Source: an uncultured Verrucomicrobiae bacterium
GTDB lineage: Bacteria; Verrucomicrobiota; Verrucomicrobiia; Chthoniobacterales; JAFAMB01
Reading direction: 5' to 3'
NCBI GenBank assembly: GCA_963762565.1
Contig: CAVXLD010000001.1
Coordinates: forward strand, 198,286 to 262,285
DNA length: 64,000 nucleotides
Shown piece after piece: positions 751 to 63,413 of this stretch. A model generated the notes under the pieces. That model did not search any database and was not told the DNA's origin. It saw only the letters and a program-made list of their open reading frames with translations. Made by a program: the position numbers and the translations under genes. Numbering within the stretch: position 1 is the stretch's first letter; the number at the start of each line of letters is the position of its first letter.

Positions 751-792
751 CGGCGAACGGGCGAACAAACTGGTGGGGCGAAGCTCCAGATC
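751..792. repeat. Solo left end of a family-A element (degenerate) with GGCGAAC units
   Basis: cggcgaacgggcgaacaaac followed by tggtggggcgaagctccagatc (canonical: ggtggggcgaggctcccgaa). No convincing right end before the gatB stop. Confidence 0.4.
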
Positions 793-852
793 TTCCTAAA
801 AAGGTGAACAAGGCGATTGCTATTACCGAATCTATAGTAGCCAGCACCGAAC

Positions 853-3184: not shown

Positions 3185-3190
3185 GACGCA

Positions 3191-7792: not shown

Positions 7793-7937
7793 TAGCGAAT
7801 CGGCGTGTGGGCGAAACGGCGAAAGGGCGAAATGGAAGCCGTACGGCGAAAGTTTCGGTGCGCCCATGACGTGCAACTTTCTATCGATGCCGACGCGCCG
7901 AGATTTTCGCCCTTTCGCCCATTCGCCCATTCGCCGG
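7793..7937. repeat. Array-bracketed element H1 (GGCGAAN arrays)
   Basis: Left gtgtgggcgaaacggcgaaagggcgaaatgg. Right ttttcgccctttcgcccattcgcccattcgccgg. The 67-nt core ends in gcgccgag, like a family-A left arm. Confidence 0.75.
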
Positions 7938-7953
7938 TGCGCGCTTCTAGCTC

Positions 7954-10591: not shown

Positions 10592-10625
10592 GGTGGCCGG
10601 TGGGGTAAGGCGCGGGTTGCAATTC

Positions 10626-10747
10626 GGGAGGGCGCGCGTCCCCGCACGCCGCGAGGACGTGCCACAACTGATTGTGTATTTTCGCCGCCATAATTAACAT
10701 ACGCTGGACTTCGGTAACAACGGATCGCGAGGACGCGATCCCTCCCC
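10626..10747. repeat. Family C element, copy C2
   Basis: gggagggcgcgcgtccccgcacgccgcgagg ... ggatcgcgaggacgcgatccctcccc. Same orientation as C1. Confidence 0.85.
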
Positions 10748-14420: not shown

Positions 14421-14701
14421 GGTGGGGCGAGGCTCCCGAACGGAAGATGTACTTTCACAGCGCCCCTCGCTGAACCTCATGAGTTGTCGGCAACACCGAT
14501 GGACCGCCGAGCCGTCGGTCTGCAGCGTTTCAATACCCCGTTAGAATGAAGAACGTGCGTAGCAGATGCTTCAGATGCGCTGATTAGTTGTACGCGCTGG
14601 GACGCGGCTCGGCACGCCAATCGGCGAAACCTCGCGCGCAGTTTCGCAAAATCGAGCCTCTTTGTCGGAGATTTTAGGTCACTCGGGAGCCTCGCCCCAC
14701 C
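14421..14701. repeat. Family A element, copy A1 (281 nt)
   Basis: TIRs ggtggggcgaggctcccgaa (14421-14440) / tcgggagcctcgccccacc (14683-14701). Internal gccgagccg (14506-14514) / cggctcggc (14605-14613). GGCGTTT units on the left flank (14384-14405). Confidence 0.9.
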
Positions 14702-17034: not shown

Positions 17035-17270
17035 GGTGGGGCGAGGCTCCGGAACTACGATTTTGTGTTCACAGGGGAGTTGATGCACTTAACCCAGCGC
17101 TCACAATTTCGATACGCTGCCGAGCCGCTGTTCTGTCGTGTGGCCGGCACCTTATTCCATGGGAGATCAGGGGAATCGGCTCGGCGGTCCTTCCGGCCTA
17201 ACGTTGCGTCCGGCGTCAAATCATCGAGGTCTCCGATATAGCGTCCGGTCTTTCGGGAGCCTCGCCCCAC
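17035..17270. repeat. Family A element, copy A2 (236 nt)
   Basis: TIRs 17035-17054 / 17252-17270. Internal 9-mers 17119-17127 / 17177-17185. Followed by cgtttcgcccattcg units. Confidence 0.9.
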
Positions 17271-17412
17271 TAATGCCCGCCGTTTCGCCCATTCGTTGCG
17301 TTTTGGTGGTTACAGTAATTGTTGCGTTCTTTCCGGTAGAAAAATCGGGAAAAGCAAGATAAAAATATAACGCCATCTCCCGCAGGCGTGTTATCATAAA
17401 GGCGATTGTATC

Positions 17413-19722: not shown

Positions 19723-19947
19723 ATGGTGATTGGTGATTGGTGGGGCGAGGCTCCCGAAAGGCCTTTTAGTCTTATCAAGCGGGTCAGTTCTCACCCGGAG
19801 ATTATGTCCGCTACGCCGATAAACCCGCCGAGCCGTTGGTCCACGCGAACCATGGCTCGGCAGCGTTTCGGCATAGGTCGTATCGTGGTGAGGATCTTCC
19901 CCCTGCCTTGCGATCGTCATCAGGCCTTTCCGGAGCCTCGCCCTACC
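19718..19947. repeat. Family A element, copy A3 with GTGATTG array on the left
   Basis: The array gtgtgaatggtgattggtgattgg contains the mglA stop. TIRs 19739-19758 / 19928-19947. Minimal central hairpin gccgagccgttggt-ccacgcga-accatggctcggc. Confidence 0.9.
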
Positions 19948-21783: not shown

Positions 21784-21990
21784 TTAGTGATTAGTGATTA
21801 GTGATTGGTGATTGGTGGGGCGCTGGGGCGATGAAAAAACGTGTAACATGGACGCGGACTGGCACTAATACACTTATAAGTCCCGTCTTGTCATAAGCCC
21901 CATCGATATCAGCCGCGCACATCCTTGCTCTAAACGCTTTTCCATCAGCCCAGGCACCCACTAATCACCAATCACTAATCACCAATCACC
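21781..21990. repeat. TGATTAG/TGATTGG array-bracketed element (A-related variant)
   Basis: The left 5 heptamers begin with the TGA stop of the tonB-like gene and are followed by tggggcgctggggcg. Right cccactaatcaccaatcactaatcaccaatcacc. The core lacks the canonical A TIR. Confidence 0.8.
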
Positions 21991-22055
21991 TTCCCTGCCC
22001 TATTGACGCACCCGCCCCTCCGCGGGACGATGTTGGTAGCGGCCACAAACTGTCC

Positions 22056-23532: not shown

Positions 23533-24780
23533 GTGATGAGCGATAGACGTGTTGTAGTCACCGGGTTGGGTGTTATCACACCAATCGGTAATGACCTTAA
23601 AACCTTTTGGGAGAACCTTGTAGCGGGGAAAAACGGGATCCGTAAGATCTCGCATTTCGACGCCTCCATCTTCGACTGTCACATTGCCGGCGAGGTGCCA
23701 GATTTCGATCCCATTACGTATCTGGCTAATCCTAAGGACGTTCGGCGGACCGACCGTTTTTCCCAATTTGCTCTGGCCTGCTCAAAGCGGGCCCTAGAAG
23801 ACAGTGGTCTCGATCTGGAACGCATCGACCGCACTCGGGTCGGCGTCCTGGTCGGCAGTGGGATCGGCGGCTTGAGCACACTGGAGACCCAACATGTGGT
23901 TTTCTTGAAGAAAGGCCCTTCCAGAGTGTCTCCCTTCATGGTGCCAATGATGATCGTGAACATGGCCAGCGGATTAATCGCGATGGAATACGGCTTTGAA
24001 GGCCCGAATTATTCTATCGTGACCGCTTGTGCCACCTCCGCGAACTCCATTGGCGAAGCTTGGAGGATGATTCGCGATGATGAAGCCGAGATTTTCTTGG
24101 CCGGCGGTACCGAGGCGGTCATCAATAATCTTGGCCTCGGCGGCTTCTGTGCGATGCGGGCGATGAGCACGAGAAACGATGAACCGCACCGGGCATCGCG
24201 CCCATTCGATAGGGAACGAGACGGGTTCGTGATGGGTGAAGGCGGTGGAGTCTTAATTCTCGAGGAGTACGAACACGCAAAGGCTCGAGGGGCACGCATC
24301 TACTGCGAACTCGCTGGTTATGGACTTACCTGCGATGCTTACCACATGACCGCGCCCAAACCCGATGGGACGCCGGTAGCGCGAGGGATGCAAATCGCCG
24401 CGAAGCGGGCCGGCGTTAATCCGACGGATATTGATTACATCAACGCTCACGCCACATCGACACAGGTCGGCGATGTTTGCGAAACGAATGCGATTAAACG
24501 GTTCGCCGGTGATTACGCGAAAAATGGTCTTTTGATTAGCTCAACCAAATCGATGATTGGTCATCTGCTCGGCGGCGCTGGAGCAGTAGAAAGCGCGGTC
24601 TGCATCCTTGCCATGCAACATGGTGTGGTGCCGCCCACGATCAATCTCGACAATCCTGACCCTGAGTGCGACCTCGACTACGTCCCAAATGTCGCACGCG
24701 AGAAAAAAGTACGAGTCGCACTTAATAATTCGTTTGGCTTCGGCGGCCACAACGCATCGCTTTGTTTCAAAGCATTGTAG
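23533..24780 (+). CDS. fabF: 3-oxoacyl-ACP synthase II
   Basis: RRVVVTGLGVITPIG, ACATS active-site Cys, HATST and GHLLGGAG motifs. Confidence 0.95.
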   Translation: MMSDRRVVVTGLGVITPIGNDLKTFWENLVAGKNGIRKISHFDASIFDCHIAGEVPDFDPITYLANPKDVRRTDRFSQFALACSKRALEDSGLDLERIDRTRVGVLVGSGIGGLSTLETQHVVFLKKGPSRVSPFMVPMMIVNMASGLIAMEYGFEGPNYSIVTACATSANSIGEAWRMIRDDEAEIFLAGGTEAVINNLGLGGFCAMRAMSTRNDEPHRASRPFDRERDGFVMGEGGGVLILEEYEHAKARGARIYCELAGYGLTCDAYHMTAPKPDGTPVARGMQIAAKRAGVNPTDIDYINAHATSTQVGDVCETNAIKRFAGDYAKNGLLISSTKSMIGHLLGGAGAVESAVCILAMQHGVVPPTINLDNPDPECDLDYVPNVAREKKVRVALNNSFGFGGHNASLCFKAL

Positions 24781-24939
24781 GGGGCGTTTGGCGTTCGGCG
24801 TTCGGCGTTTGGCGTTCGGCGTTCGGCGTTCCTATGATTCGAAATGATTGCAACACTGCGGATCTGTCGTGGCTCGTGAGCAAGCGACGCGCGTTATTGA
24901 AGCGCCGAACGCCAAACGGTGAACGCCGAACGCCAAACG
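24781..24939. repeat. Array-bracketed element G1 (GGCGTTY arrays)
   Basis: Seven GGCGTTY units (24781-24830) start 1 nt after the fabF stop. A 71-nt core follows. The inverted array gcgccgaacgccaaacggtgaacgccgaacgccaaacg is at 24902-24939. Confidence 0.85.
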
Positions 24940-25800
24940 AGTAAGTACGTCGTTCTTCTGCTCCTGACCGCATTGTTTTGGTCGTTGGGAGGAGTCCTCA
25001 TCAAGTCCATCGATTGGAATCCTGTCGCCATTGCGGGTTCGCGAAGCTTGATCGCCGTCTTCCTAATCGCCATCCTGCGACCGTCCGCCGTCCGTAAATT
25101 TTCCTGGACCGCATTCTTCGGCGGAATCGCCTACATGGTGACAGTTGTGTTGTTCGTGATTGCAACCAAGCTGACAACCGCTGCCAATGCCATTTTTCTC
25201 CAGTACACGGCTCCGATTTATATCGCTCTGATAAGCCCATGGCTTTTGAAGGAACGTGTTCGTCGACTGGACTGGATTCTGATCGGTCTTGCTTTCGGCG
25301 GAATTGCTCTCTTTTTCTGCGACCGGCTCTCCTTTGCCGGAATTTGGGGAGTAATGGCCGCACTTGTCAGCGGCTTCTCCTACGCGTGGCTTACGATGCT
25401 GTTGCGTCGCCAAAAATCGGCATCCCCCGAAGCCACGGTGTTCATAGGCAACTTGATGACTGTGTTAGTGGCGGCTCCGGCGATGTGGCCGCCGGTGAAC
25501 CTGGGCCATAATTGGCCTTGGCTGCTTGCCTTGGGCGTCCTCCAGCTCACGATTCCCTATTTGCTTTATACACAGGCTATCCGGCATGTGCGTGCGCTGG
25601 ATGCATCTATAATCAGCATGATCGAGCCGATCCTTAATCCGATCTGGGTCATGTTTGCCGTGGGCGAACATCCCGCCAGATGGGCAATCGTCGGAGGATG
25701 CATGGTCCTGGGAACCTCTTTGCTACGGAGTATCTTCGCCTCGCGCGAGCCCGAATCCGAATTCGCCTTAGGCTCATCCGGAATGACAAATGACAGATGA
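24919..25800 (+). CDS. DMT (EamA) family transporter
   Basis: About 10 TM helices in two EamA-like halves. The start is uncertain because the first codons lie in the GGCGTTY-type array. The stop and last ~13 codons lie in element F1. Confidence 0.75.
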   Translation: MNAERQTSKYVVLLLLTALFWSLGGVLIKSIDWNPVAIAGSRSLIAVFLIAILRPSAVRKFSWTAFFGGIAYMVTVVLFVIATKLTTAANAIFLQYTAPIYIALISPWLLKERVRRLDWILIGLAFGGIALFFCDRLSFAGIWGVMAALVSGFSYAWLTMLLRRQKSASPEATVFIGNLMTVLVAAPAMWPPVNLGHNWPWLLALGVLQLTIPYLLYTQAIRHVRALDASIISMIEPILNPIWVMFAVGEHPARWAIVGGCMVLGTSLLRSIFASREPESEFALGSSGMTNDR

Positions 25801-25902
25801 AAAATGACAGATTGGGAAATCCTTCGGTCACACGCGTTCTATTTCGGACATTTGTCATCTGTCATTTGTCATTTGTCATTCGAAACGAGCCTCAGGCGAG
25901 TT
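25760..25902. repeat. Family F element, copy F1 (143 nt)
   Basis: aattcgccttaggctcatccggaATGACAAATGACAGATGAAAAATGACAG, core attgggaaatccttcggtcacacgcgttctatttcggac, then the inverted TGTCATY array and cgaaacgagcctcaggcgagtt. Confidence 0.9.
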
Positions 25903-26329
25903 TCGCCGTGTACGTATTCGCAGTGCCAGACAGACACACGACTCCATCCTGATTGCGCACAGTGGTGGCAAGCGTGCAGATCGGTTTGTCGTCACGAACA
26001 GTTGTGACTTCAACCCTGCCGGTAATCACATCTCCGACGTAGACTGCTTTAACAAACTTCCATTCTACCCCGAGAAACACCGTGCCGGGGCCAGGGAGAT
26101 CTTCGGCCACGATCGCGTTCAAAATTCCGGAAGTGATGCCTCCCTGAACGATCAATCCGCCAAACACTGATCTCCCAGCAACTTCGCGGTCATAATGTAA
26201 CGGATTCCGGTCGCCGGTGATCTCTGTAAATAGCGCGATGTCGCGCTCGCTGACTGTTCGGGATCGCTCTGCCGAATCGCCAACTCTCGGTTTCCCACGA
26301 ATTGTTCCCGCCCAACCGTCACTCTTCAT
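25892..26329 (-). CDS. MaoC-family (R)-specific enoyl-CoA hydratase/dehydratase
   Basis: 145 aa hot-dog fold. ITGDRNPLHYD motif. Confidence 0.85.
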   Translation of the reverse strand: MKSDGWAGTIRGKPRVGDSAERSRTVSERDIALFTEITGDRNPLHYDREVAGRSVFGGLIVQGGITSGILNAIVAEDLPGPGTVFLGVEWKFVKAVYVGDVITGRVEVTTVRDDKPICTLATTVRNQDGVVCLSGTANTYTAKLA

Positions 26330-26343
26330 GATGTGACCTCCGG

Positions 26344-26486
26344 ACTCGCCTTAGGCTCGTCCGCAATGACAAATGACAAATAACAGATGACAGATTGGGA
26401 ATTCCTTCGGTCACACGCATTTCTATTTCGGAGATTTGTCATTTGTAATTTGTCATCTGCCATTCCGAACGAGCCTCAGGCGAGTT
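26344..26486. repeat. Family F element, copy F2 (143 nt)
   Basis: Same layout as F1. Core attgggaattccttcggtcacacgcatttctatttcggag. The right end ccgaacgagcctcaggcgagtt supplies the stop of the ABC ATPase gene. Confidence 0.9.
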
Positions 26487-27231
26487 CGGCTTCTGTGAGC
26501 GCTGCTAACACCCGTTCCTTCCAAGCCGTGAAGGCATGATCCTGTCGAGAACGAGGCCGAGGAAGATCGATCCGAAATTGGCGATGAATTTGTCCGGGGC
26601 GTCCCTTGATCACAACGATGCTGTCGGATAATGCGACCGCTTCTTCAATATCGTGCGTCACGAAAAACATGGTCAACGAATGCCTCGCAAAAAGCTCCAT
26701 CAAATGGTCTTGCAGCCGGCTTCGGGTGAGAGCATCGAGGGCGCTAAACGGCTCGTCCAGCAATAGAAGAGATGGTTTTCGCACTAAGGCTCTGGCTATC
26801 GCCACCCTTTGAGCCATCCCTCCCGACAATTGGCGCGGGTAATAATGGGAGAAGGATTCTAAACCAACTTGCTCCAGAATTTCCTTCGCCAACGCTCCGA
26901 TCCGGCTATGCCCGGCCGGGCCGAACCCGAATTCCACATTTTGGCGAACGGTCAGCCACGGCATGAGTCGGGGCTCTTGAAACACGACGCCTAGGTTGGG
27001 GCGTTCGGCATTTGGCGTTTGGCGTTCGGCGTTCGGCGCACGATCGCTATCCCAGCGGATTTCTCCGGAGGTCGGGCGCTCAAGTCCAGCTAGAATCCGC
27101 AACAGCGTGCTTTTGCCCGAGCCGGTCGTACCCACCATCACCGTGACTTGTTGCGGCTCGATCGAAAGCTCAAGATTAGCAATCACCAAAGCGTCACCGT
27201 AAGCCTTCGTTATCTGATCGATTCTTACCAT
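26476..27231 (-). CDS. ABC transporter ATP-binding protein, NitT/TauT (SsuB/TauB-like) family
   Basis: Walker A GTTGSGKST, signature LSGGMAQR, Walker B LLLLDEP. The true start is probably MVRIDQI at 27231, since the track start at 27330 reads through element F3. It contains an in-frame heptamer-array insertion. Confidence 0.9.
   Translation of the reverse strand: MVRIDQITKAYGDALVIANLELSIEPQQVTVMVGTTGSGKSTLLRILAGLERPTSGEIRWDSDRAPNAERQTPNAERPNLGVVFQEPRLMPWLTVRQNVEFGFGPAGHSRIGALAKEILEQVGLESFSHYYPRQLSGGMAQRVAIARALVRKPSLLLLDEPFSALDALTRSRLQDHLMELFARHSLTMFFVTHDIEEAVALSDSIVVIKGRPGQIHRQFRIDLPRPRSRQDHAFTAWKERVLAALTEAELA
26994..27042. repeat. GGCGTTY heptamer array inside the ABC ATPase coding sequence
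   Basis: ggttggggcgttcggcatttggcgtttggcgttcggcgttcggcgcacg. Translated on the minus strand it gives APNAERQTPNAERPN, between the Walker A region and the VVFQEPRLMPW Q-loop. Confidence 0.85.
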
Positions 27232-27243
27232 TGAACTCGCTGA

Positions 27244-27377
27244 GGCTCCTTCAAGATGACAATGACAGATGACAGATGACAAATGTCCGAAATAGACCGC
27301 GCGTGACCGAAGGATCTCCCAATCTGTCATCTGTCATTTGTCATTCCGAACGAGCCTCAGGCGAGTTCGGCTGATAG
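27244..27377. repeat. Family F element, copy F3 (core inverted relative to F1/F2)
   Basis: aactcgctgaggctccttcaagATGACAATGACAGATGACAGATGACAA, core atgtccgaaatagaccgcgcgtgaccgaaggatctcccaatc, then TGTCATCTGTCATTTGTCATtccgaacgagcctcaggcgagtt. Confidence 0.9.
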
Positions 27378-28230: not shown

Positions 28231-28524
28231 TTGTGTCCTGTCCCATAAGTAACATGGCTTTCGCCGTCGGCCAGTTGGCTGTTTTTCAAGGCGCGAGCGA
28301 AGCGCCCATATCTGGTTCATACGGGTCGAGCGAGCAACGCGGAAAAACAGCCAACTGGCCACGGCCCGGAGGGTTGCGATGAAAATGGGCCGGCGGCTGC
28401 GTTGCTCGTCGGTTACGTATCGATCAAGATATGCGCCCTCTACCGCCAGTCCGGCTCGGACCGCCTTGCCGGCGGCCCATTTTGATCGCAACGAAAGCCA
28501 TGTTACTTATGGGACAGGACACTA
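28231..28524. mobile_element. Family D MITE-like element, copy D1 (294 nt)
   Basis: About 33-nt TIRs: tgtgtcctgtcccataagtaacatggctttcg / cgaaagccatgttacttatgggacaggacacta. It fills the gap between the SBP stop (28522-28524) and the permease start (28216). About 96% identical to D2. Confidence 0.9.
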
Positions 28525-29649
28525 GTTGGCAGTCGCGATCCGATCCGCAAACGAGGGATCGAGCAATTCATTCACGATCCTGTCCACGTCGGTGTTGGGA
28601 TCGATGATTCCGTTCGCTTTCAAGGCGTTGGCGGAATCCAGAATAACCTGGCGCTGAGTCGCTCCGAGCCGCGAATCCTTCAGGTTGGTCCTTTCCCACA
28701 CCTTCTCCGCAACGGCCGGGCTTAATTGAGCCGCTGACTGTAGGATGGTACGCGCTTCGTCCGAATGATCCAGGCACCACAGGCGGGCTTTCTCATAAGT
28801 TCGGAGAACGCGCTCAGTAATATCCGGATGCTCGAAAGCGAAAGCTTCCCGTACGTTCAATACCCCGAAACTGTTCCAATCCGCTCGGCGAAAAAACAGC
28901 TTAAATCCCTTGTCGACCTCTAGCTGTGCCATGTACGGATCCAGCCCGGCCCAAGCATCGACCTGCCCCCGTTCCAACGCGACTTTGCCGTCGGGATGCT
29001 GCAAAGGTACAACCTGGATATCCTTTTCGCTCAACCCAGCGGAGGCGAGTGACCGCAAAAGAAAAATATGAGGATCAGTTCCGCGAGTCACGGCCACGCG
29101 TTTGCCACGCAGATCTTCGATCCGCGTTATTCCGGAGCTTGGGCTTGTTACCAGCGCGGTCCATTCGGGCGCAGAATAAACGTAAATCGCTTTGATTGGG
29201 TTGCCGTTTGCTCGCCCGATAAATGCCGCCGCTCCCGCGGTTGAGCCGAAGTCGACACTTTTGCCCCTTAGATACTCCAGCGCTTTGTTACTACCCAGGC
29301 TCTGCACCCACTCCACCTTGATGCCGCTTGAGCCCAGATCCTCCTCTAGCCATTTCTTGTCCTTGAGCACCAGGCTAATCGGATTGTAGTACGCCCAATC
29401 GACTCGAACGGTGTCGACGCTTCCGGCCTTGGAAAATTCGCCAAACCAGAGCGACCCAAACAAACACATAAGGGACAAAATCGAGCTCAGGCGACCTCGC
29501 CTCGGTGATGGCTTAGTTGTGTCACCGTACGCGCGAGGGGGATTGTACCTCGGGCTGCCATGCCTGGAAGATCGAAGTCGGACGGAAAGAATACTGTGCT
29601 GATAGGGTTTCACCCTCCCCATCTCTAGATGTAATCCGCCCGAACGCAA
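28522..29649 (-). CDS. ABC transporter substrate-binding protein, NMT1/SsuA-like
   Basis: Periplasmic-binding-protein pattern (VRVDWAYYNPISLVLK..., AVTRGTDPHIFLL). The start codon is uncertain, with several in-frame ATGs between 29469 and 29649. Confidence 0.8.
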   Translation of the reverse strand: MRSGGLHLEMGRVKPYQHSILSVRLRSSRHGSPRYNPPRAYGDTTKPSPRRGRLSSILSLMCLFGSLWFGEFSKAGSVDTVRVDWAYYNPISLVLKDKKWLEEDLGSSGIKVEWVQSLGSNKALEYLRGKSVDFGSTAGAAAFIGRANGNPIKAIYVYSAPEWTALVTSPSSGITRIEDLRGKRVAVTRGTDPHIFLLRSLASAGLSEKDIQVVPLQHPDGKVALERGQVDAWAGLDPYMAQLEVDKGFKLFFRRADWNSFGVLNVREAFAFEHPDITERVLRTYEKARLWCLDHSDEARTILQSAAQLSPAVAEKVWERTNLKDSRLGATQRQVILDSANALKANGIIDPNTDVDRIVNELLDPSFADRIATAN

Positions 29650-29688
29650 GCCGTTTCGCGCCTAGCGCAGGCGAGCCGGTCACGACTT

Positions 29689-29892
29689 GGAGGGGAGCCG
29701 CTTTGGAATTTTGCGGATCCGTAAGTTGGCAGCAAGCGGCTCCCGGGAACGGTCCAGGGCTGGGCAGCTCTGTGACGGCTTCAAATCGATGCTTGCAACC
29801 GGGTTCTTCCGCCGTGCCTCACATTGGGTAATTCCCGGGAGCCGCTTGCTACCAACCTACAGATCTGCCACGCTACAAAGCGGCTCCCCTCC
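29689..29892. repeat. Family B element, copy B2 (204 nt, double nested inverted repeats)
   Basis: Outer ggaggggagccgctttg (29689-29705) / caaagcggctcccctcc (29876-29892). Inner ttggcagcaagcggctcccgggaa (29726-29749) / ttcccgggagccgcttgctaccaa (29832-29855). Confidence 0.9.
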
Positions 29893-30018
29893 AGTCCTTG
29901 GGCGTGCGACGCCACCGGGCTGATTGCGATGACGAGAACGAAGATGATCGCGCCACAGTGATCACTCACTCCTTGCAAGCCCAGCAGCTCCAGGCCACGG
30001 TTTGGCAGACCTAAAGTT

Positions 30019-31053
30019 ATGATGAACTATCGTTTACTCGGTCGGAGCGGGCTGCGAGTTTCGGAGCTCTGCTTAGGAACCATGACCTTCGGGGAAGATT
30101 GGGGTTGGGGAGCTCCCAAGGATGAAGCACGGAAAATCTACGACGCGTTTCGCGAAGCCGGCGGCAATTTTATCGATACGGCTAACGTTTATACGCAGGG
30201 TTCGAGCGAAACCTTTCTCGGCGAGTTCTTTTCGGAACACCGTGATAGCGTGGTTCTCGCCACGAAATACACCAATGCGCTAACCACCAATGACCCGAAT
30301 GCCGGGGGAAACCAGCGCAAGAATATGATGCAAGCCGTTGAAGGCAGTTTGCGTCGCCTGAAAACCGATTACATCGACCTCTATTGGCTTCATATCTGGG
30401 ATCAAATGACGCCAGTTGAAGAAGTGATGCGCGCCTTCGATGACCTGGTTCGCCAAGGTAAAGTCCTTTATGTCGGCGTTTCCGATGCACCTGCCTGGTG
30501 GATCAGTAAAGCGAATACGATCGCTGAGCTCCGTGGATGGTCGCCCTTCGTCGGTCTGCAGATTGAGTATTCACTGATCGAACGTACGGTCGAACGGGAG
30601 CTGATTCCGGCAGCGAAACATCTTGGGCTCACGGTCACCGCCTGGTCACCTTTAGCGGGTGGCGTTCTCACCGGCAAATATGCGTCAGGCGAAGCCACCG
30701 ACTCCCGTTATTCTACCGAAATGATGAAACAATGGTTACCAGAGCAAACTCGGACTGCTCGCATCGTTGAGGCTCTTCAGAATGTCAGTAAACAGACCGG
30801 ACGGAGTAAAGCCCAGATCGCATTGGCTTGGCTGCGACATCGCGCCGTCCCGGTTATCCCTATTGTGGGCGCCCGCAAACTGACTCAGCTTGAAGACAAC
30901 ATCGCCAGTCTGACACTCACTCTCACTCCGGACCAACTGGCCTTATTGGATGAGGCCAGTCAGATCGAGCTCGGTTTCCCGTACCACTTCTACGCTAACG
31001 AGATGGTCCGCACGTTCGTGTACGGCGGTGTAAGGGACCACATAATCACGTGA
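30019..31053 (+). CDS. Aldo/keto reductase
   Basis: YRLLGRSGLRVSELCLGTMTFG, IDTANVY and LYWLH motifs. Confidence 0.9.
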   Translation: MMNYRLLGRSGLRVSELCLGTMTFGEDWGWGAPKDEARKIYDAFREAGGNFIDTANVYTQGSSETFLGEFFSEHRDSVVLATKYTNALTTNDPNAGGNQRKNMMQAVEGSLRRLKTDYIDLYWLHIWDQMTPVEEVMRAFDDLVRQGKVLYVGVSDAPAWWISKANTIAELRGWSPFVGLQIEYSLIERTVERELIPAAKHLGLTVTAWSPLAGGVLTGKYASGEATDSRYSTEMMKQWLPEQTRTARIVEALQNVSKQTGRSKAQIALAWLRHRAVPVIPIVGARKLTQLEDNIASLTLTLTPDQLALLDEASQIELGFPYHFYANEMVRTFVYGGVRDHIIT

Positions 31054-31345
31054 TTAGTGATTAGTGATTGGCGATGGCGCTGGTCGGGCGAGGCTCCCGA
31101 AAGAACTAAAGTCTCTAACGAAGATCCAGACGTTTCGGCCTGAAAGAGTTTGTTAGGCCGATCGGTGTGCCGAGCCGTGGTTCCGCGCGTAACCCGGCTC
31201 GGCGCGTTGCTAGAAGTAGCATGCCTTCTTAATTCGGAATGCGAAGGGAGATGGAAAATCACAGAGTCTTTCGGGAGCCTCGCCCTACCAACGGCGTCTC
31301 ATCCACCATCACCTCTCACCAATCACCAATCACTTCTCACCTTCT
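31051..31345. repeat. Family A element, copy A5 with inverted TGATTAG-type arrays
   Basis: The array starts on the aldo/keto reductase TGA stop. TIRs 31082-31101 / 31270-31289. Central hairpin gccgagccgtggtt-ccgcgcgt-aacccggctcggc. Right array atcaccaatcaccaatcact (to ~31345). Confidence 0.9.
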
Positions 31346-33564: not shown

Positions 33565-33858
33565 TAGTGTGCTGTCCCATAAATAACATGGCTTTCGCCG
33601 TCGGTCAGTTGGCTGTTTTTCAAGGCGCGAGCGAAGCGCCCATATCTGGTTCATACGGGTCGAGCGAGCAACGCGGAAAAACAGCCAACTGGCCTCGGCC
33701 CGGAGGGTTGCGATGAAAATGGGCCGGCGGCTGCGTTGCTCGTCGGTTACGTATCGATCTAGATATGCGCCCCTTACCGCCAGTCCGGCTCGGACCGCCT
33801 TACCGGCGGCCCATTTTGATCACAACGAAAGCCATGTTATTTATGGGACAGCACACTA
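33565..33858. mobile_element. Family D MITE-like element, copy D2 (294 nt)
   Basis: TIRs tagtgtgctgtcccataaataacatggctttcg / cgaaagccatgttatttatgggacagcacacta. About a dozen substitutions versus D1 and no indels. Confidence 0.9.
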
Positions 33859-33865
33859 GGAGCGC

Positions 33866-38767: not shown

Positions 38768-38817
38768 CCATGGAAGACATCCCCCAACCTGCCTTTGGCC
38801 GACGCAATTCGGACCCG

Positions 38818-39022
38818 GAGGGGAGCCGCTTTATCGTTAGGCAGCTCTGTAATTCGGCAGCAAGCGGCTCCCGAGAACGGCCCCGGATGATGCAGGTCTA
38901 TTGGGCAGCCATATCGACCAGCTTGGAACAGAGCCGCTGGGCAAATATTTACGCTGGGTTATTCCCGGGAGCCGCCTGCTGCCAACTGATAGGACTGCCA
39001 CACTACAAAGCGGCTCCCCTCC
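38818..39022. repeat. Family B element, copy B3 (205 nt)
   Basis: Outer repeats 38818-38834 / 39006-39022. Inner repeats 38853-38877 / 38962-38985. The right flank ctgggcatgcgacgcc resembles the B2 flank. Confidence 0.9.
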
Positions 39023-39068
39023 AGGCGCTGGGCATGCGACGCCGTGTTCTTAGAAGCACGAAGCGCAC

Positions 39069-39774: not shown

Positions 39775-39897
39775 GGGAGGGATTCGCGTCCTCGCGATCC
39801 GACGCGATCGAAGCCCTGCGCGGCTGGCGGACGAGGGGTTGAATGTATCTTTAGTTCTTGGAACGTCTTTACGGCGCGCGGGGACGCGCGCCCTCCC
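39775..39897. repeat. Family C element, copy C3 (inverted orientation)
   Basis: gggagggattcgcgtcctcgcgatcc ... cggcgcgcggggacgcgcgccctccc is the reverse complement of the C1/C2 layout. Confidence 0.85.
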
Positions 39898-39966
39898 GGG
39901 CGGCGGAGCCCTTCTCTCGCCGCGAGATGTATACGCAAGCGAGCGAGTGCGAGATCCCGGTTCACA

Positions 39967-46648: not shown

Positions 46649-46894
46649 GGTGGGGCGAGGCTCCGGAATAACCTGAAATGGCAAACGGAGAACTCGATTT
46701 AGTCTAAACCGAGATCGCGCTTCGCCAATGGGCGCGCCGAGCCGATCCCAGCGTGTGGCAGCCGACGATCGGTCAGGGGGGGTGGAACATGCTGGGACCG
46801 GCTCGGCGCGTTTAGCGGCATCGCCCACGATAGATTGGCAAACATTGACGTCCTCCGCTCGAGCAAAGCGGCCGTTCGGGAGCCTCGCCCCACC
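46649..46894. repeat. Family A element, copy A6 (246 nt)
   Basis: TIRs 46649-46668 / 46875-46894. Internal 9-mers 46736-46744 / 46799-46807. Confidence 0.9.
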
Positions 46895-46902
46895 AACGCC
46901 TC

Positions 46903-47328
46903 TCAGAACCGCTTCCGGTGCCGGACCAGCCTATTGCCCTTTTCGTTGACCAGCACTAGTTCGTCTTCGGTGAGACTTTCAATACGCTCTTCAACCTGAT
47001 ACTGCTGCACGGAACCGGAATCGCTCCGATAAACCTCGCCCGAGGCGACCAGTTTCCCATCCTTGACATCCCACATCCCGGAAAAGCTCCAACGCGTCGT
47101 GCCTCCATCAGCGTGCATGATCTCATCCGCGGAATGCATCCCATCCCGATGGAAGCTGTTCTCGCCGTAGAATCGGTAGTTCCCCCCGGCTTCGTCAGTG
47201 ACCCAAGTCCCAACCAACTTTTGGGTTAGTTCTTGATCGGTCGGAGCGGACTTGTGGCAGGCAACACCGCCGGCGACGAGCAGGCTGCTCGCCAAGACAC
47301 CTCCTAGAATACGCCGTCGCCATCTCAT
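46903..47328 (-). CDS. Hypothetical lipoprotein
   Basis: MRWRRRILGGVLASSLLVAGGVAC lipobox. The track GTG start at 47346 lies in the hairpin arm, so the ATG at 47328 is preferred. Confidence 0.45.
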   Translation of the reverse strand: MRWRRRILGGVLASSLLVAGGVACHKSAPTDQELTQKLVGTWVTDEAGGNYRFYGENSFHRDGMHSADEIMHADGGTTRWSFSGMWDVKDGKLVASGEVYRSDSGSVQQYQVEERIESLTEDELVLVNEKGNRLVRHRKRF

Positions 47329-47340
47329 TCCATTTAATTT

Positions 47341-47422
47341 CACCACAGAGAGACAGAGGACACAAAAGCCAAAATTCGGTTTCCCTTAGGATGACCTTTG
47401 TGTCCCCTGTCTCTCTGTGGTG
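47341..47422. repeat. 26-bp-stem hairpin downstream of clpX
   Basis: caccacagagagacagaggacacaaa (47341-47366) pairs with tttgtgtcccctgtctctctgtggtg (47397-47422), with one mismatch and a 30-nt loop. Confidence 0.85.
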
Positions 47423-47425
47423 AAA

Positions 47426-48694
47426 TTAAGCGGCGTCCTTGTCCTGCTTCCTGCGAATTAGAGGAGCTCGTTTGCCCTCAACCACGGCCCGATTGATCAC
47501 CACGTCAGCGATGTCTTCCCGGCTCGGAACGTCGTACATAACGTCGAGCATGATTTTTTCGAACATGGAACGAAGCGCACGCGCCCCAGTTCCTTTGGTG
47601 GCCGCCTGTTGGGCCAACGCCCGGAGAGCGTCCTTAGTAACCACCAAGTTCACTCCCTCCATCGCCAATAGTTTGGTGTACTGCTTCACCATCGCGTTCC
47701 GCGTGTCGGTCAATATCAGGATTAACTCTTCCTCGGTTAAGGTATCCAGCGCCGTCACAATCGGTAACCGGCCGATGAACTCCGGTATCATCCCGAAGGA
47801 GAGCAGATCTTCGGGTTCGGTATGCCGCAAGGTATCACGCAACTGGAGGTCTGAGGAACTGATTTGAGGCGAATGAAAACCGAGTACTCGGTTCCCTAAC
47901 CGTCGATTAATCAGCCGGTCTAACCCCACAAAGGCTCCGCCGCAGATAAACAAAATCTTTTCCGTGTTAACCTGGATATACTCCTGGTGAGGATGCTTTC
48001 GTCCACCTTGAGGCGGGACATTGCAGCTGCTTCCTTCCAAAATCTTCAGAAGCGCCTGCTGGACGCCCTCACCGGAAACATCGCGGGTAATACTGACGTT
48101 ATCGGTTTTACGGCCGATCTTATCTATTTCATCGATATAAACGATTCCAATCTCGGCTCGTTTAACGTCGTAGTCAGCATTCTGCAGGAGCCGCAAGATG
48201 ATATTCTCGACGTCTTCCCCAACGTAACCGGCCTCGGTCAACGTCGTAGCATCAGCGATACAAAACGGCACATCCAGAATTCGGGCTAGTGTCCTGGCCA
48301 GGAGCGTCTTTCCGCACCCAGTTGGCCCGATCATCAAAATATTGCTCTTTTCAATCTCGACGTCAGCGTATGGATCGAGGGATAGATCCTTGGTCGGGTT
48401 GGCGTTCAGAATCCGCTTGTAATGGTTGTGGACGGCCACGGAAAGGACCTTCTTGGCCGAATCCTGCCCAATCACATGCTGATCGAGTTCGCGCCTGATC
48501 TCGACTGGCTTCGGCACACGCAGCGTTGTGGTCTGCCGTCGGGCGTCCTCGTTTAGCTCTTTATCGAGGATGCCTTTACAAACGTTGATACAATTATCGC
48601 AGATGTAGACACCCGGCCCGGCGATCAATTTGCGAACCTCTGCGTGGCTCTTTCCGCAGAAAGAACACATCGTCAGATTAGAGGCCCGGGCCAT
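47426..48694 (-). CDS. clpX: ATP-dependent Clp protease ATP-binding subunit ClpX
   Basis: N-terminal zinc ribbon CSFCGK...CDNC, Walker A GPTGCGKT, and the IGFG-like loop region. Confidence 0.97.
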
Positions 48695-50746: not shown

Positions 50747-50796
50747 GGAAACTTAGCGAACGCCAAGCCTAGACCTGATCCCGTATCGGGGCAAGA

Positions 50797-50992
50797 GGGC
50801 GAATAGGCGAAACGGCGAGTGGGTCAATGGGCGAAAAGGCGACAACGCGTCAGAATCATCTCTGAACGCTATGGCAGAAAACTCGACGGTCTCGCGACAC
50901 GAGTTGCTGTTTCAGACAAACGCAGCGGTTTTGAGCCGTTCCGCGGGCACCCTCGCCGTATCGCCCTTTTCGCCCACTCGCCGTTTCGCTCC
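50797..50992. repeat. Array-bracketed element H2 (GGCGAAN arrays)
   Basis: Left gggcgaataggcgaaacggcgagtgggtcaatgggcgaaaaggcgac. Right cctcgccgtatcgcccttttcgcccactcgccgtttcgctcc. 107-nt core. Confidence 0.8.
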
Positions 50993-51007
50993 CGCGTCCG
51001 GAAACGT

Positions 51008-53727: not shown

Positions 53728-53886
53728 GAAACGAGCGAGAACGAGCGGAAACGAACGAGAAAGTTCGGAAGCGAGGATTGGCGGGGCGAGGCTCCCGCAG
53801 GACCCTGCGCGACGCCAGGGTTTAAGGCAATTCGATTCCGGATGTAATGTTAGGCCGAAACAAGCGCCGAGCCGCTCGTTTCTCCT
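53728..53886. repeat. Family A half element A7 (left half only) with GAACGAG arrays
   Basis: gaaacgagcgagaacgagcggaaacgaacgagaaag array, TIR ggcggggcgaggctcccgca (53780-53799), a 66-nt arm, gccgagccg (53866-53874), then immediately ctcgtttctc. Confidence 0.75.
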
Positions 53887-54834: not shown

Positions 54835-54883
54835 TCTGGTGGTTATCCATTCGTGGTTCGTAAACGGCCAGAGGTGGTCCGGC

Positions 54884-55200
54884 AGTAAGCGGTAAGCAGT
54901 AAGCAGTGGTCAGTACTACGAGCTAAAATCCAGGAGCTAGGAGGGCCGACGGCTGTGGAGCGTGCCTCGCTTGCGAGTCCGTGGTGAGCAAGGCTCATTA
55001 CGTGACATCCCCATCGTCGGCGTACGCTCTTTTGTCTGAAGAGGCAAACCTTGCGATACAGAGCGCTGACCGACATAGGGCATGTGTCGTGGTTCACCCT
55101 TGCTCTCCAACGGCCTCGCAAGCGAGGCACGCTCCACGGCCGTCGCCCCTCCTAGCTCCTAAATTCTAGCTCCTAGCTCCTAAACTGCTTACTGCTTACT
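54884..55200. repeat. Family E element, copy E2, with two nested layers of inverted arrays
   Basis: AGTAAGC units then AGCTAGGAG units on the left. TIRs 54955-54993 / 55098-55137. CTCCTAGCT units then GCTTACT units on the right. Confidence 0.9.
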
Positions 55201-57046: not shown

Positions 57047-57194
57047 GGTGAGCGAGGCTCCGGCACGACAAAATGCATTGCCAAACCCAGCGATAGGCCC
57101 GGCTCGGCGAGCTGTGCAGCGTTGCACCGGTCAAGTAGGGGCAGCATAGCGGCTTTGCGAAAATCGATCGGTCGTTCGGGAGCCTCGCCCTACC
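57047..57194. repeat. Family A half element A8 (left TIR joined to right half)
   Basis: ggtgagcgaggctccggca (57047-57065), only cggctcggc (57100-57108), a 66-nt right arm, and TIR ttcgggagcctcgccctacc (57175-57194). Confidence 0.75.
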
Positions 57195-59311: not shown

Positions 59312-60187
59312 GTGAACATGAGCGAGCGGCCTGCTGCCATCGGTGTCATTGGAGGAAGCGGTCTTTATCAGATGGGAGGCTTGGACTCGCCCACAGAGAT
59401 AGAGGTCGATACTCCCTTTGGAAAACCCTCCGACTCGATCGTGGGCGGGATCTTAGGAGGCCGTCCGATCTATTTTTTACCCCGGCACGGAAGAGGCCAT
59501 CGGATCTTGCCGAGCGAGTTGAATCATCGAGCAAACGTATTTGCGCTGCGGTCTCTGAACGTTCGGTGGCTCATCAGTTTCGGCGCCGTAGGCAGCCTTC
59601 AAGAGAACTACCATCCTCGTGACATTTTACTGCCGTCTCAATTCTTTGATCGAACCAGTCAAAGAGCCTCGTGGACCTTTTTCGGGGAAGGCATCGTTGC
59701 CCACGTTTCCTTCGCGGATCCAGTGAGCTCAAAGCTGAGGGCAATTACCGCAGAGGCAGCCCGGGCGGTGGGTTGCCGTGTTCATGATGGCGGCACCTAC
59801 GTCAACATGGATGGCCCCGCTTTTTCAACTCGAGCCGAGTCTGAATTCCATCGAAAAATGGGATTCGATGTGATCGGTATGACGAACCTGCCCGAGGCAA
59901 AACTTGCCCGTGAAGCAGAAATGGCCTTTGTAGCAATCAGTCTAGTGACAGACTACGATTGCTGGAAAGTTGACGTTGAGCCGGTAACGGCGGAAACGAT
60001 AATCGGCCATCTGCTGGCGAATGCTGATGCCGCTCGACAGATTACTTCGAAAGTGGTTGCACAGATTCCGGAAGAGCCAAATTGGCCGGAGCATCGGGCA
60101 TTGGATTCCGCTCTAGTTACTGATCGGAAACTTTGGCCGCCCGCCACGGTTAGAAAGTTAGAAGTTATCTTGAAACGATTTTTGTGA
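59312..60187 (+). CDS. mtnP: S-methyl-5'-thioadenosine phosphorylase
   Basis: IGVIGGSGLY, FLPRHGRGH and the MTNLPEAKLAREAE motif region. Confidence 0.9.
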   Translation: MNMSERPAAIGVIGGSGLYQMGGLDSPTEIEVDTPFGKPSDSIVGGILGGRPIYFLPRHGRGHRILPSELNHRANVFALRSLNVRWLISFGAVGSLQENYHPRDILLPSQFFDRTSQRASWTFFGEGIVAHVSFADPVSSKLRAITAEAARAVGCRVHDGGTYVNMDGPAFSTRAESEFHRKMGFDVIGMTNLPEAKLAREAEMAFVAISLVTDYDCWKVDVEPVTAETIIGHLLANADAARQITSKVVAQIPEEPNWPEHRALDSALVTDRKLWPPATVRKLEVILKRFL

Positions 60188-61026
60188 AAATGCGTTATCT
60201 CTTGGGTTGGTTTTTCGTGCTTTTTAGCATGGTCTCTTGGGCTGCGGCTGAAGACACGACGGTGGCGAGTCCAAGTCCGTCCCCGTCACCAGTATCAACA
60301 CCTGAAGCTCCAGCCGCCGAGGTAAAACCGGCGACCTGGTTCAGCGTGCACGTCGACGGTCCTTACATCGCGATGACTTTCGATGATGGACCCAGTGCGG
60401 AAACCACTCCTCGACTGCTGGACATTCTTAAACAACGAAATCTCAAAGTCACTTTCTTCGAGATCGGTCAAAACGCCGAACGCAATCCGGCGATCGTTAA
60501 ACGAATTCTGGCGGAAGGGCATGAGATCGGGAATCACTCGTGGACGCACCCCCAGCTGTCGAAGTTGTCCGACGAGCGCGTCACTGAAGAGATCACCAAG
60601 ACCCAAGACGCGATCAAAAACGCATCCGGTTCCGGCTATACCCCAACTCTGTTACGCCCGCCGTATGGCGCCATCACTGCCCGGCAGAAGGAGTGGATCG
60701 AAAAACAGTTTGGCTTGAGCATCATCATGTGGTCCGTGGATCCCTTCGACTGGAAACGGCCCGGAGAATCAGTGATCGAGCAACGGATTTTGGCCGGCGC
60801 ACGACCCGGTGCGATCATACTTTCCCACGATATCCACAAACAGACCGTTGATGCGATGCCAGCTACATTAGATGCGCTGATAGCCAAGGGATTCAAGTTC
60901 GTGACCGTCAGTCAATTGATTGCGATGAACACACCCAAGAGCAGCGTCACCCCAAGTCCGCGGCCGTCAGCCAGTCCTCACGCAAGTCCGGTGAAAAAAA
61001 AGGCTAGACTGGCGGCGGGGAACTAG
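60184..61026 (+). CDS. Polysaccharide deacetylase (NodB homology) family protein
   Basis: MTFDDGP, GNHSWTHP and LLRPPYG motifs. Signal peptide plus Pro/Ser linker. Confidence 0.85.
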   Translation: MKMRYLLGWFFVLFSMVSWAAAEDTTVASPSPSPSPVSTPEAPAAEVKPATWFSVHVDGPYIAMTFDDGPSAETTPRLLDILKQRNLKVTFFEIGQNAERNPAIVKRILAEGHEIGNHSWTHPQLSKLSDERVTEEITKTQDAIKNASGSGYTPTLLRPPYGAITARQKEWIEKQFGLSIIMWSVDPFDWKRPGESVIEQRILAGARPGAIILSHDIHKQTVDAMPATLDALIAKGFKFVTVSQLIAMNTPKSSVTPSPRPSASPHASPVKKKARLAAGN

Positions 61027-61035
61027 AGGGTTTTT

Positions 61036-61317
61036 GGTAGGGCGAGGCTCCCGAACATCCCGACATCTTCGCAACGCCGGGGATGATCTTCTACCAGTGT
61101 ATTAACGTGGCCGATCAGCGCGCCGAGCCGTTGGTCCCAGCGAGTTCCATGACCCACAAGAACGGATCGAAGGTTTTTAAAAGTTCTCGCACGTCGAAGC
61201 GGTTAAATCAGCGCTGGGTAAATCGGCTCGGCGGGCAGACCGGGGCTGGACGCGTTTAATCCAAAAAATCACGGGCCCTGCGAAAGTGCATTCGTAATTC
61301 GGGAGCCTCGCCCTACC
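61036..61317. repeat. Family A element, copy A9 (282 nt)
   Basis: TIRs ggtagggcgaggctcccgaa (61036-61055) / ttcgggagcctcgccctacc (61298-61317). Internal 9-mers 61122-61130 / 61224-61232. Confidence 0.9.
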
Positions 61318-63092: not shown

Positions 63093-63125
63093 TGTAGACA
63101 TGGACCCGGAAGGGGGAGACACCCG

Positions 63126-63335
63126 GAGGGGAGCCGCTTTGTCAGACGCTAGCTGTGTTCGGTCGGCAGCAGGCGGCTCCCGGGAATAGCCCAGCGCGTT
63201 CTATTTATCCAGCGCCTACTTCGTTGAAGCACCGACACGGACAGAGCCTATAGAGCTGGATTACCTGGCAGACGTTACCGGGAGCCGCCTGCAAGCAACC
63301 GATAGACCTGCCAACTTACAAAGCGGCTCCCCTCC
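63126..63335. repeat. Family B element, copy B4 (210 nt)
   Basis: Outer repeats 63126-63142 / 63319-63335. Inner tcggcagcaggcggctcccgggaa (63163-63186) / ttaccgggagccgcctgcaagcaa (63275-63298). Confidence 0.85.
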
Positions 63336-63342
63336 GGCGCCG

Positions 63343-63413
63343 CGTCGCCGATACGCCCATTCGCCCTTTCGCCCGTTCGCCGATACGCCCACACGCCGAC
63401 ACGCCCATACCCC
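63343..63413. repeat. One-sided NTTCGCC-type array upstream of cdsA
   Basis: cgtcgccgatacgcccattcgccctttcgcccgttcgccgatacgcccacacgccgacacgcccatacccc. No mirrored partner on the left of B4. Confidence 0.7.

Follow-up and report, generated by a model that had tools for sequence, protein, structure and literature searches.

The locus raises the question of which kind of element is repeated between its genes. The DNA under study is a 64,000-nt stretch of contig CAVXLD010000001.1 from an uncultured Verrucomicrobiae bacterium (the whole stretch is called the window in the following), and the element, named Family A, is an intergenic repeat with 20-nt terminal inverted repeats that occurs there in six full copies. 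A sequence-only reading of the window had predicted a folded shape and implied a structured RNA, with an ordinary miniature inverted-repeat transposable element (MITE) as fallback. In relatives, the same ends flank a gene for a transposase associated with repetitive extragenic palindromic (REP) sequences, a REP-associated tyrosine transposase (RAYT). This points to an unusually large and modular version of a REPIN (a REP doublet forming a hairpin) and not to a new structured RNA. Family A is probably the REPIN-like, non-autonomous hairpin DNA of a cognate RAYT of the HUH/Y1 type in Chthoniobacterales-type Verrucomicrobiota, for which we infer the transposition chemistry from better-studied enzymes.

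The window was searched with the terminal pattern GGTNGGGCGAGGCTCCNGAA, and 15 matches with up to three mismatches were obtained where 0.13 were expected. The inner block GCCGAGCCG was found 13 times compared with 1.3 expected matches. The six full copies (208-282 nt) were thus borne out. Five of them had been placed exactly, but the second copy ends at 17271 with ...CCCCACT and not at 17270. A half-unit profile search gave a total of 15 half-units, of which twelve belong to the full copies and three to partial copies that had been overlooked at first. By extrapolation, some 1.8 kb of the 64 kb, or about 3% of the window, consists of Family A. When species-representative genomes were scanned, loci with 68 full copies were obtained, and 108 more were taken from metagenome contigs; these extra copies (~175) stem from metagenome-assembled genomes (MAGs) of Chthoniobacterales/Verrucomicrobiota and from soil metagenomes. 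In the genome scan, the family was nearly confined to Verrucomicrobiota/Chthoniobacterales soil MAGs, and no match was found in the viral contigs searched.

A full copy consists of the 20-nt terminal block, a spacer of ~65 nt, an inner block (GCGCC)GAGCCG(YGG) and a variable apex, followed by the mirror image. The symmetry is two-fold: the left half and the reverse-complemented right half, each of ~96 nt, have one consensus, and no column tells them apart. The outer block starts with G-GT(G/A)G-GGCGAGGCTCC. The consensus of the half-unit reads TTT-GGT(G/A)GGGCGAGGCTCC(C/G)GAA, a weak AAnGRCC, ~10 nt and CRRAG, followed by ~30 free nt, TAGGCC, ~6 nt and CGCGCCGAGCCG(Y)GG. In left halves, GCCGAGCC lies 92-98 nt from the end, and in right halves 90-100 nt; the spacers are constant in length and free in sequence. 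Positions 2-5 of the ends are GTGG in 141 and GTAG in 72 cases, and the sequence next to this tag forms no local stem-loop.

Three length classes were distinguished, namely S (198-219 nt, mode 211), M (225-254 nt, ~240) and L (262-318 nt, ~280), and they differ in the apex only. S forms have 17-20 nt (usually 17-18) between the inner blocks, with the perfect palindrome GCCGAGCCGTGGCCCAGCGCTGGGCCACGGCTCGGC as consensus, while in M and L forms the central stem is longer (GTCT..GYGTGCC / GGCACRY..AGAC) and the tip varies. The expanded loops had been called unrelated; this does not hold fully, as the M and L forms have the longer stem in common and further motifs are common to the copies at 14421 and 61036. 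Two other generalisations had to be relaxed: the copy at 14421 ends with CTCGGGAG... (CTC instead of TTC), and the copy at 19739 has TGGCTCGGC in place of the inner block CGGCTCGGC.

The central observation was made at a metagenome locus (L109), where a left and a right Family A half lie 574 nt apart in inverted orientation with an open reading frame (ORF) of 152 amino acids between them. The gene takes the place of the apex in the small elements. Its only NCBIfam match was NF047646, REP-associated tyrosine transposase (E = 5.6e-19, 11-145 of 146 profile positions). The best match in the PDB was 4er8, TnpArep (E. coli TnpA-REP), with E = 7.8e-8 and with the HUH and catalytic-Tyr segments aligned. 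H65, H67, Y122 and N126-P127-V128 were invariant in 13 sequences, namely 12 homologues and the E. coli protein, and JGI lists some of the homologues under the names RayT or REP-associated tyrosine transposase.

Four homologues of this ORF were looked up, three with 73-77% identity (on the seven contigs L206-L210, L212 and L213) and one with 64% (L211). On L206-L210 and L212, inverted Family A halves flank the gene on both sides; contig L213 ends before the right side. In this layout, the outer block lies ~180 nt and GCCGAGCCG ~90 nt upstream of the gene, and CGGCTCGGC follows ~28 nt and the outer block ~100 nt past its stop codon. Synteny is conserved among the units of L109 and L206-L213, apart from L211: Glyco_transf_9 lies upstream on contigs that extend far enough, and a UvrA-like gene in convergent orientation follows downstream; in L109, the ORF on this side reads as the same UvrA-like neighbour. 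Between these orthologous units of 756-783 nt, the outer blocks are 85-100% and the inner blocks 69-94% identical, compared with 44-60% in the spacers, which is about the random level, save for one comparison (0.79). The gene-flanking copies are mostly GTAG-tagged.

Two further loci are independent of this synteny. The 64%-identical homologue stands in another gene context and is flanked by GGTAGGGCG(G/A)GGCTCC-GTCT-GAGCCGGGG, i.e. by the same outer and inner blocks just 4 nt apart. This compact 76-nt doublet folds with -28 kcal/mol (z = -5.8). At the second locus, L158, the copy at positions 3060-3539 measures 474 nt; at both ends it matches the L212 unit with 89-90% identity, and 279 nt are deleted within the gene. 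The site is non-syntenic, and the similarity to the L212 unit stops at the outer blocks. It is a second, gene-disrupted copy of the unit at another site, which argues that the DNA bounded by the outer blocks was copied or moved as one piece, and that internal-deletion derivatives do arise. The 280-, 240- and 211-nt forms would then be further deletion derivatives down the size series. This series, from the gene unit (~760 nt) over the 474-nt deletion copy and the 280/240/211-nt forms to the compact relative of ~70 nt, suggests what the enzyme needs: the two blocks and their spacing.

A number of findings weigh against a REPIN-like element with a cognate RAYT. The ORF of L109 reached 68.5 bits against NF047646, which is under the curated cut-off of 80 bits, and Pfam Y1_Tnp was not reached at E 0.01. 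All syntenic gene-bearing units represent one orthologous locus and thus one ancestral event, and independent support beyond it is given by L211 and L158 only. No RAYT gene was found within the 64-kb window, so that we infer the co-occurrence of gene and repeat in the window's own organism; metagenome Ga0185299 holds both. Unlike classical REPs, which are imperfect palindromes of 20-40 nt, the outer block is not palindromic: its 20 nt are not self-complementary, and half-units fold no better than shuffles (z +0.7 and +1.2). The spacers of Family A form no hairpin, whereas those of P. fluorescens REPINs do (PMC3337134). At three orthologous positions, no empty site with clean boundaries was seen, as these were rearranged or filled by other repeats. 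Finally, the blocks may be constrained locus by locus and hence have a function for the host, with which their slow decay described below is weakly compatible.

An alternative description of each half as a REP with an expanded loop was rejected, as neither half-units nor the single compact unit fold, and the description as a doublet was kept. The idea that the centres of L forms are remnants of gene-flanking DNA gained weak support (mean z 0.45, 4/37 above 2; TTTACCCAGCGC is shared with the copy at 61036) and was also discarded. Among the first 80 loci, no pair of ends enclosed a transposase, and the ORFs adjoining the solo ends examined are ordinary genes. The Y1_Tnp gene of L011 was dismissed as a partner of Family A, for the 94-nt inverted repeat on its two sides is its own, contains CCCAGGGCTTTAGCCCTGGG and is unrelated to Family A. 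This second Y1 transposase of 149 amino acids (Pfam Y1_Tnp 1.5e-22, NCBIfam IS200 1.8e-16) indicates that the same genomes host at least two Y1 systems. Most contigs with a RAYT gene are short; Family A repeats would explain fragmented assemblies, and they need to be masked before terminators or non-coding RNAs are predicted in these genomes.

Family A was compared with the REPIN-RAYT systems of Pseudomonas fluorescens SBW25 and E. coli (PMC3116915, PMC3337134, PMC5581495 and PMC3479197). REPINs have spacers of which no two are alike and fall into discrete length classes (PMC3337134), and long vertical persistence is described for REPIN-RAYT systems in 10.1101/2021.07.10.451892 and PMC5581495. 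Family A likewise has two conserved inverted ends around a variable spacer, discrete spacer-length classes and hundreds of extragenic copies with spacers that are all unlike, without target duplication. It is capable of forming a hairpin as DNA (z = -6.8), and it persists vertically, with orthologous copies as well as decayed, half and mini copies. RAYTs are single-copy genes of ~500 bp flanked by their own REPIN type (PMC3337134); the gene found here has ~460 bp, codes for a HUH/Y1 protein homologous to TnpA-REP, keeps a fixed chromosomal position between repeats of its own type. Mobility of the doublets may be reflected, indirectly, in their presence or absence at orthologous sites, in a paralogous pair within one genome (L004 and L067) and in the relocated copy of L158.

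Other features differ. With 198-318 nt, Family A is 2-3 times longer than the GI REPIN of SBW25 (89 nt), each end is split into two conserved blocks ~65 nt apart, and the gene lies exactly inside one giant element, similar to an insertion sequence, and not beside several REPINs. The host belongs to the Verrucomicrobiota, unlike those of the studied systems. As the short palindrome of classical REPs is lacking, Family A is not a strict member of the REPINs. Neither is it a new kind of system; we regard it as a modified REPIN-RAYT type.

Closely similar are the TIRtrons or TIRYTs, in which a RAYT-like gene is flanked by terminal inverted repeats (TIRs) that also form a dispersed family. Di Nocera et al. 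(2013, PMC3733652) describe GTAG-tagged repeats and such TIR-flanked RAYT-like genes with the TIR motif GGGGWSAS, to which GGGGCGAG of Family A is a 7/8 match. GTAG at the outer end, as in the GTAG-tagged REPs, is found in a third of the Family A copies. In PMC3733652, the TIR families described are mostly small or moderate, while Family A is very abundant with ~15 half-units in 64 kb. It also differs by its second conserved inner block and by mostly carrying GTGG rather than GTAG.

Insertion sequences of the IS200/IS605 group and their miniatures use a Y1 HUH enzyme that recognises hairpins in single-stranded DNA, they cause no target duplication, and gene-less miniature derivatives exist. 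Family A, as read here, would be alike in these respects. However, IS200/IS605 elements have differing left and right subterminal hairpins without long TIRs, whereas Family A is two-fold symmetric. The ERIC/IRU, Correia and BIME repeats are intergenic imperfect palindromes of 100-300 bp with indel size variants near the 3' ends of genes, as is Family A; their copies are similar along the entire length, and Correia elements show a TA duplication. None of them is known to carry its transposase between its own ends, unlike Family A.

The fallback of an ordinary MITE would make Family A an internal-deletion derivative of a DDE-type insertion sequence, moved as double-stranded DNA by cut-and-paste via the 20-bp TIRs. 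Inverted repeats of 20-23 bp, small size, intergenic position, many copies and deletion variants all agree with this. But no direct target-site duplication was found in ~175 copies, as had been stated for the window; the flanks TTT[element]AAA are a mere extension of the inverted repeat. No DDE transposase lies beside any solo end examined, the only gene found between the ends of the parent-like unit codes for the Y1/HUH protein, and the conserved inner block at a fixed distance would be left unexplained. Recent identical insertions, as the fallback supposed, were not observed either: the copies are old and mostly vertically inherited, and their spacers are nearly all different (mean identity of 0.50 within one genome, 0.78 for the best pair). 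A DDE-type MITE is therefore very unlikely.

Under the structured-RNA reading, Family A would be a non-coding RNA or 3'-UTR element (a terminator, RNase III site or mRNA stabiliser) whose stems are selected at the RNA level. The copies in the window are all intergenic, as noted before, and start 8-39 nt past a stop codon; across loci, the median is ~27 nt. The helices would be very stable if transcribed, a short T-rich tract comes after the inner hairpin in the consensus, and classical REPs affect termination and mRNA stability according to PMC3733652. Whole elements fold far better than shuffles (z -5.4 to -9.2 as RNA), because the two block helices supply the folding energy. The predicted shape was confirmed as to the outer helix of 20 bp (often 23-27 bp), the two spacers and the inner or apical helix. 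The two large internal arms, in contrast, are without structure (mean z = -0.04 over 98 arms), which also led to the rejection of a four-way junction with structured arms. A long continuous hairpin was rejected as well, since the identity between the left spacer and the reverse-complemented right spacer was 0.55 for spacers of one copy, 0.51 for spacers of different copies and 0.47 after shuffling. Outside the elements, the spacers have merely chance-level matches of 15-16 nt, and a role as guides to other loci was dropped.

The covariation proposed as a check was found at few positions. RNAalifold on 30 S-form copies returned only the two block helices with compensatory changes in 6/28 consensus pairs, all at known variable positions, and no real structure within half-units. 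Spacer pairing by position showed a small excess, with clear covariation at positions 4 and 21 only; what is conserved in the blocks is the sequence rather than the pairing. In 32 copies between co-directional genes, which served to orient them, G·U and A·C mismatches were about equally common (44 vs 37 inside the element, 20 vs 17 in the flanks, 64 vs 54 in total), and this gives no hint that one transcribed strand is under selection. Rfam gave no match at gathering score across the window and nothing meaningful at E <= 5 for two copies. Flanking genes are in tandem for 34, convergent for 14 and divergent for 7 of 55 copies; promoters are thus avoided only mildly, and the two-fold symmetric elements have no polarity relative to genes. 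Copies at orthologous sites are lost, halved or swapped for other repeat families. Given the unstructured arms, the few co-varying positions, the lacking G·U excess and the empty Rfam search, a structured RNA is not supported, and this reading is improbable.

Another reading regards the copies as double-stranded sites that the host maintains for a dimeric or tetrameric protein in nucleoid organisation, supercoiling or recombination. The spacing would reflect the geometry of the protein and the link to the RAYT would be incidental. This agrees with the fixed spacing of ~65 nt with free sequence and with the two-fold symmetry. In enterobacteria, REPs are bound by gyrase as well as by IHF. IHF also appears in PMC3479197. 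In six cases, copies were found at orthologous sites of different species, with flanks that are 82-95% identical. Four clean orthologous pairs had identical residues at 391/510 spacer, 99/124 apex and 116/128 inner-block positions, and in the outer block at 79/80 positions on the ascertained side and 69/80 on the other side. The blocks therefore decay, yet more slowly than the spacers.

The sites are nevertheless variable. The rpoN neighbourhood was compared in five relatives (L081-L085), and three sites of the window were followed. After the DUF8321 gene, the window has its 237-nt copy, L081 only an orthologous left half, and in L082 both ends are present in a mini copy of 82 nt. In L083 and L085 the site is empty, with a 27-nt spacer; this is the result of the empty-site check that had been suggested, but the boundaries are not clean. 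Different repeat families occupy the other two sites in the relatives. In the rpoN neighbourhood of the three relatives that are more distant, whose RpoN shares 86%, 82% and 78% identity with that of the window, Family A was not detected. As many copies decay, lose a half or vanish in close relatives, and as the RAYT gene had these same ends around it wherever its context was examined, with a deletion copy of the unit at another site, the data argue for mobility rather than for fixed host sites. Sites kept by the host as the primary explanation are unlikely, although a co-opted host role in termination, RNA stability or protein binding may exist.

In the same comparison, gene order was kept while the intergenic DNA turned over fast. 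At one site, the intergenic length ranged from 27 to >460 nt, set by the repeat family present. L084 has an extra sigma-54 activator gene inserted before rpoN.

The position directly past stop codons, the imperfect inverted repeats with conserved ends and variable middle, and the flanks ...ACCAAC / GTTGGT..., which are faintly R-box-like, are also reminiscent of integron attC recombination sites at the 3' ends of gene cassettes. Known attC sites measure 57-141 nt. The elements of the window are longer than that (208-282 nt), their spacers are unpaired, and the associated enzyme is of the Y1/HUH type and not an integrase. The neighbours are housekeeping genes on both strands, e.g. gatB, rpoN, clpX and peptidases, with copies 2.6-15 kb apart. 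By its gene content and by the RAYT association, the attC reading is refuted for practical purposes. A tRNA-like acceptor end was also considered and discarded, as the ACCA is just the extended inverted repeat.

By analogy with TnpA-REP and Y1 enzymes of the IS608 type (PMC3479197; PMC3337134), mobilisation of a REPIN-like Family A by its RAYT could proceed as follows. In single-stranded DNA, e.g. the lagging-strand template, the two outer blocks would pair with each other and the two inner blocks likewise. The RAYT would recognise this two-helix hairpin together with the GT(A/G)G tag, nick at the element boundaries through a 5'-phosphotyrosine link and rejoin the element into single-stranded DNA elsewhere, without target duplication. 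Insertion would favour extragenic DNA just past stop codons, often at the apex of existing palindromes. Blocks and spacing would persist because only copies keeping them stay mobilisable, while the spacers drift.

This proposed preference for palindromes relates to the flanks. In 27/67 copies, the 60 nt beyond the two ends are inverted repeats of each other that reach right up to the element, and they consist of heptamer arrays or other palindromic families. Family A is thus often found at the apex of a larger palindrome. A more speculative proposal, which we consider possible but doubtful, is that the RAYT of this lineage reads a composite two-helix single-stranded structure (the outer 20-bp and the inner helix, ~65 nt apart on either strand) in place of a single compact REP hairpin, that symmetric expansion of a compact ~70-nt REPIN like that of L211 gave rise to Family A, and that apex-targeted insertion, jointly with heptamer arrays and further palindromic families, builds the nested palindromes by which the intergenic DNA of these abundant soil bacteria is filled. 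If true, both the recognition of REPINs and the intergenic architecture of genomes would take a new form here. Spacers of fixed length and free sequence would offer a way to probe how a Y1 enzyme measures distance in folded single-stranded DNA. The REPIN-RAYT relationship, so far studied mainly in Pseudomonas and enterobacteria, would also be extended to uncultured soil Chthoniobacterales.

The positions of all copies in the window, of the gene-bearing unit and of further repeats are compiled in the table.

Table. Coordinates of Family A copies, of the RAYT-like ORF between Family A ends and of other repeats; positions refer to the window unless a locus is named.
Feature	Position	Strand	Parts	Context
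Full copy, L form, 282 nt (flagged in the sequence-only reading)	61036..61317		outer blocks 61036-61055, 61298-61317; GCCGAGCCG 61122-61130; CGGCTCGGC 61224-61232; spacers 61056-61121, 61233-61297; apex 61131-61223	begins 9 nt past stop of polysaccharide deacetylase gene 60184-61026
Full copy, L form, 281 nt	14421..14701		outer blocks 14421-14440, 14682-14701; inner blocks 14506-14514, 14605-14613	between S11 peptidase gene and rpoN; starts 39 nt past stop
Full copy, M form, 237 nt	17035..17271		outer blocks 17035-17054, 17252-17271; inner blocks 17119-17127, 17177-17185	starts 15 nt past stop of gene 16255-17019
Full copy, S form, 209 nt	19739..19947		outer blocks 19739-19758, 19928-19947; inner blocks 19827-19835, 19853-19861	16 nt past stop of gene 19078-19722; left flank is a GTGATTG heptamer array
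Full copy, S form, 208 nt	31082..31289		outer blocks 31082-31101, 31270-31289; inner blocks 31169-31177, 31195-31203	flanking genes convergent; inverted GTGATTA / TCACCAA heptamer arrays on both sides
Full copy, M form, 246 nt	46649..46894		outer blocks 46649-46668, 46875-46894; inner blocks 46736-46744, 46799-46807	8 nt from stop of minus-strand gene 46903-47346
Solo left half-unit	53778..53875	+	outer block 53780-53799 (2 mismatches); inner block 53866-53874	without partner half; divergent intergenic region
Internally deleted copy, 148 nt	57047..57194		degenerate left block GGTGAGCGAGGCTCCGGCA 57047-57065; CGGCTCGGC 57100-57108; intact right block 57175-57194	orthologous to full 238-nt copy in L037 and 160-nt copy in L075
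Left-end fragment	770..832	+	outer block 772-791 (2 mismatches) and ~40 nt of spacer; without inner block	
RAYT-like ORF of L109	680-1138	-	left half: outer block 559, GCCGAGCCG 644; right half: CGGCTCGGC 1224, outer block 1298	
Second Y1 transposase gene of L011	4194-4936			
Heptamer/octamer arrays	21780-21822 / 21948-21994; 31050-31078 / 31302-31344; 24776-24842 / 24896-24939; 7795-7835, 7899-7950, 50790-50839, 50962-50997, 63337-63412; 54880-54945 / 55140-55200			
Second palindromic family	29684-29913, 38812-39043, 63121-63356			also L081 site 1, L082 and L083 site 3
GTAGGGATGAGCTCC(C/T)GCTCATCC family	L158 3030-3062 / 3540-3569			also flanks in L069 and L080
Short palindromic unit	21815-21930			between GTGATTA arrays
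293-nt direct repeat	28233-28525, 33567-33859			
TGTCATT/AATGACA arrays	25756-25902, 26339-26486, 27261-27370			around minus-strand genes 25892-26329 and 26476-27330
GC-rich inverted pair	10625-10664 / 39859-39898; 10702-10747 / 39775-39820			
38-nt inverted repeat	47334-47371 / 47392-47429			between clpX and a 147-aa gene

The solo half at 53780 and the end at 57194 were considered as the two ends of one gene-bearing unit. This was rejected, as the three genes between them are ordinary (amidase-like, peroxiredoxin and radical SAM) and the right-hand half belongs to the separate deleted copy.

Typical Family A copies were also seen in four MAGs labelled Alphaproteobacteria, Acidobacteriota, Actinomycetota (3.47-Mb contig) and Bryobacterales (L022, L047, L050 and L066), with L047 being a solo end. 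Their G+C content is 54-55%, and L047, L050 and L066 share 76-91% nucleotide identity over kilobases with other Family A loci. The phylum labels of these four look unreliable, but Family A may also truly be present across phyla.

Further repeats were noticed around Family A. Tandem heptamer or octamer arrays (GTGATTA, GGCGTTC, TCGCCCAT, AGGAGCT, GCAGTAA) occur as inverted pairs around a central unit and form nested, 'Russian-doll' palindromes in many intergenic regions, often with Family A in the centre. They resemble the heptameric STRR repeats of cyanobacteria. The short palindromic unit between two GTGATTA arrays starts with GGTGGGGCGCTGGGGCGATG and ends with ...CCCAGGCACCCAC. Its first 9 nt agree with the end of Family A; it could be a relative that is either different or decayed.

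A second large palindromic family (..GGAGGGGAGCCGCTTTG...CAAGCGGCTCCCGGGAA.., ~230 nt, with arms of 62 nt that are 85% complementary) fills, in relatives, intergenic sites held by Family A in the window. The family GTAGGGATGAGCTCC(C/T)GCTCATCC... provides the inverted flanks of several Family A copies, including the relocated deletion copy of L158.

Other repeats of the window concern different sequences. The two copies of the 293-nt direct repeat are 96% identical and lie 5.3 kb apart. The TGTCATT/AATGACA heptamer arrays have conserved flanks (..CGAACGAGCCTCAGGCGAGTT) and form inverted repeats of up to 85 nt with 92% complementarity around two minus-strand genes. Two GC-rich sequences of 40-46 nt (CGGGAGGGCGCGCGTCCCCGC...) occur in inverted orientation 29 kb apart and seem to lie inside or at the edge of ORFs. 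The 38-nt inverted repeat next to clpX, with 92% complementarity around a loop of 20 nt, has no relation to Family A.

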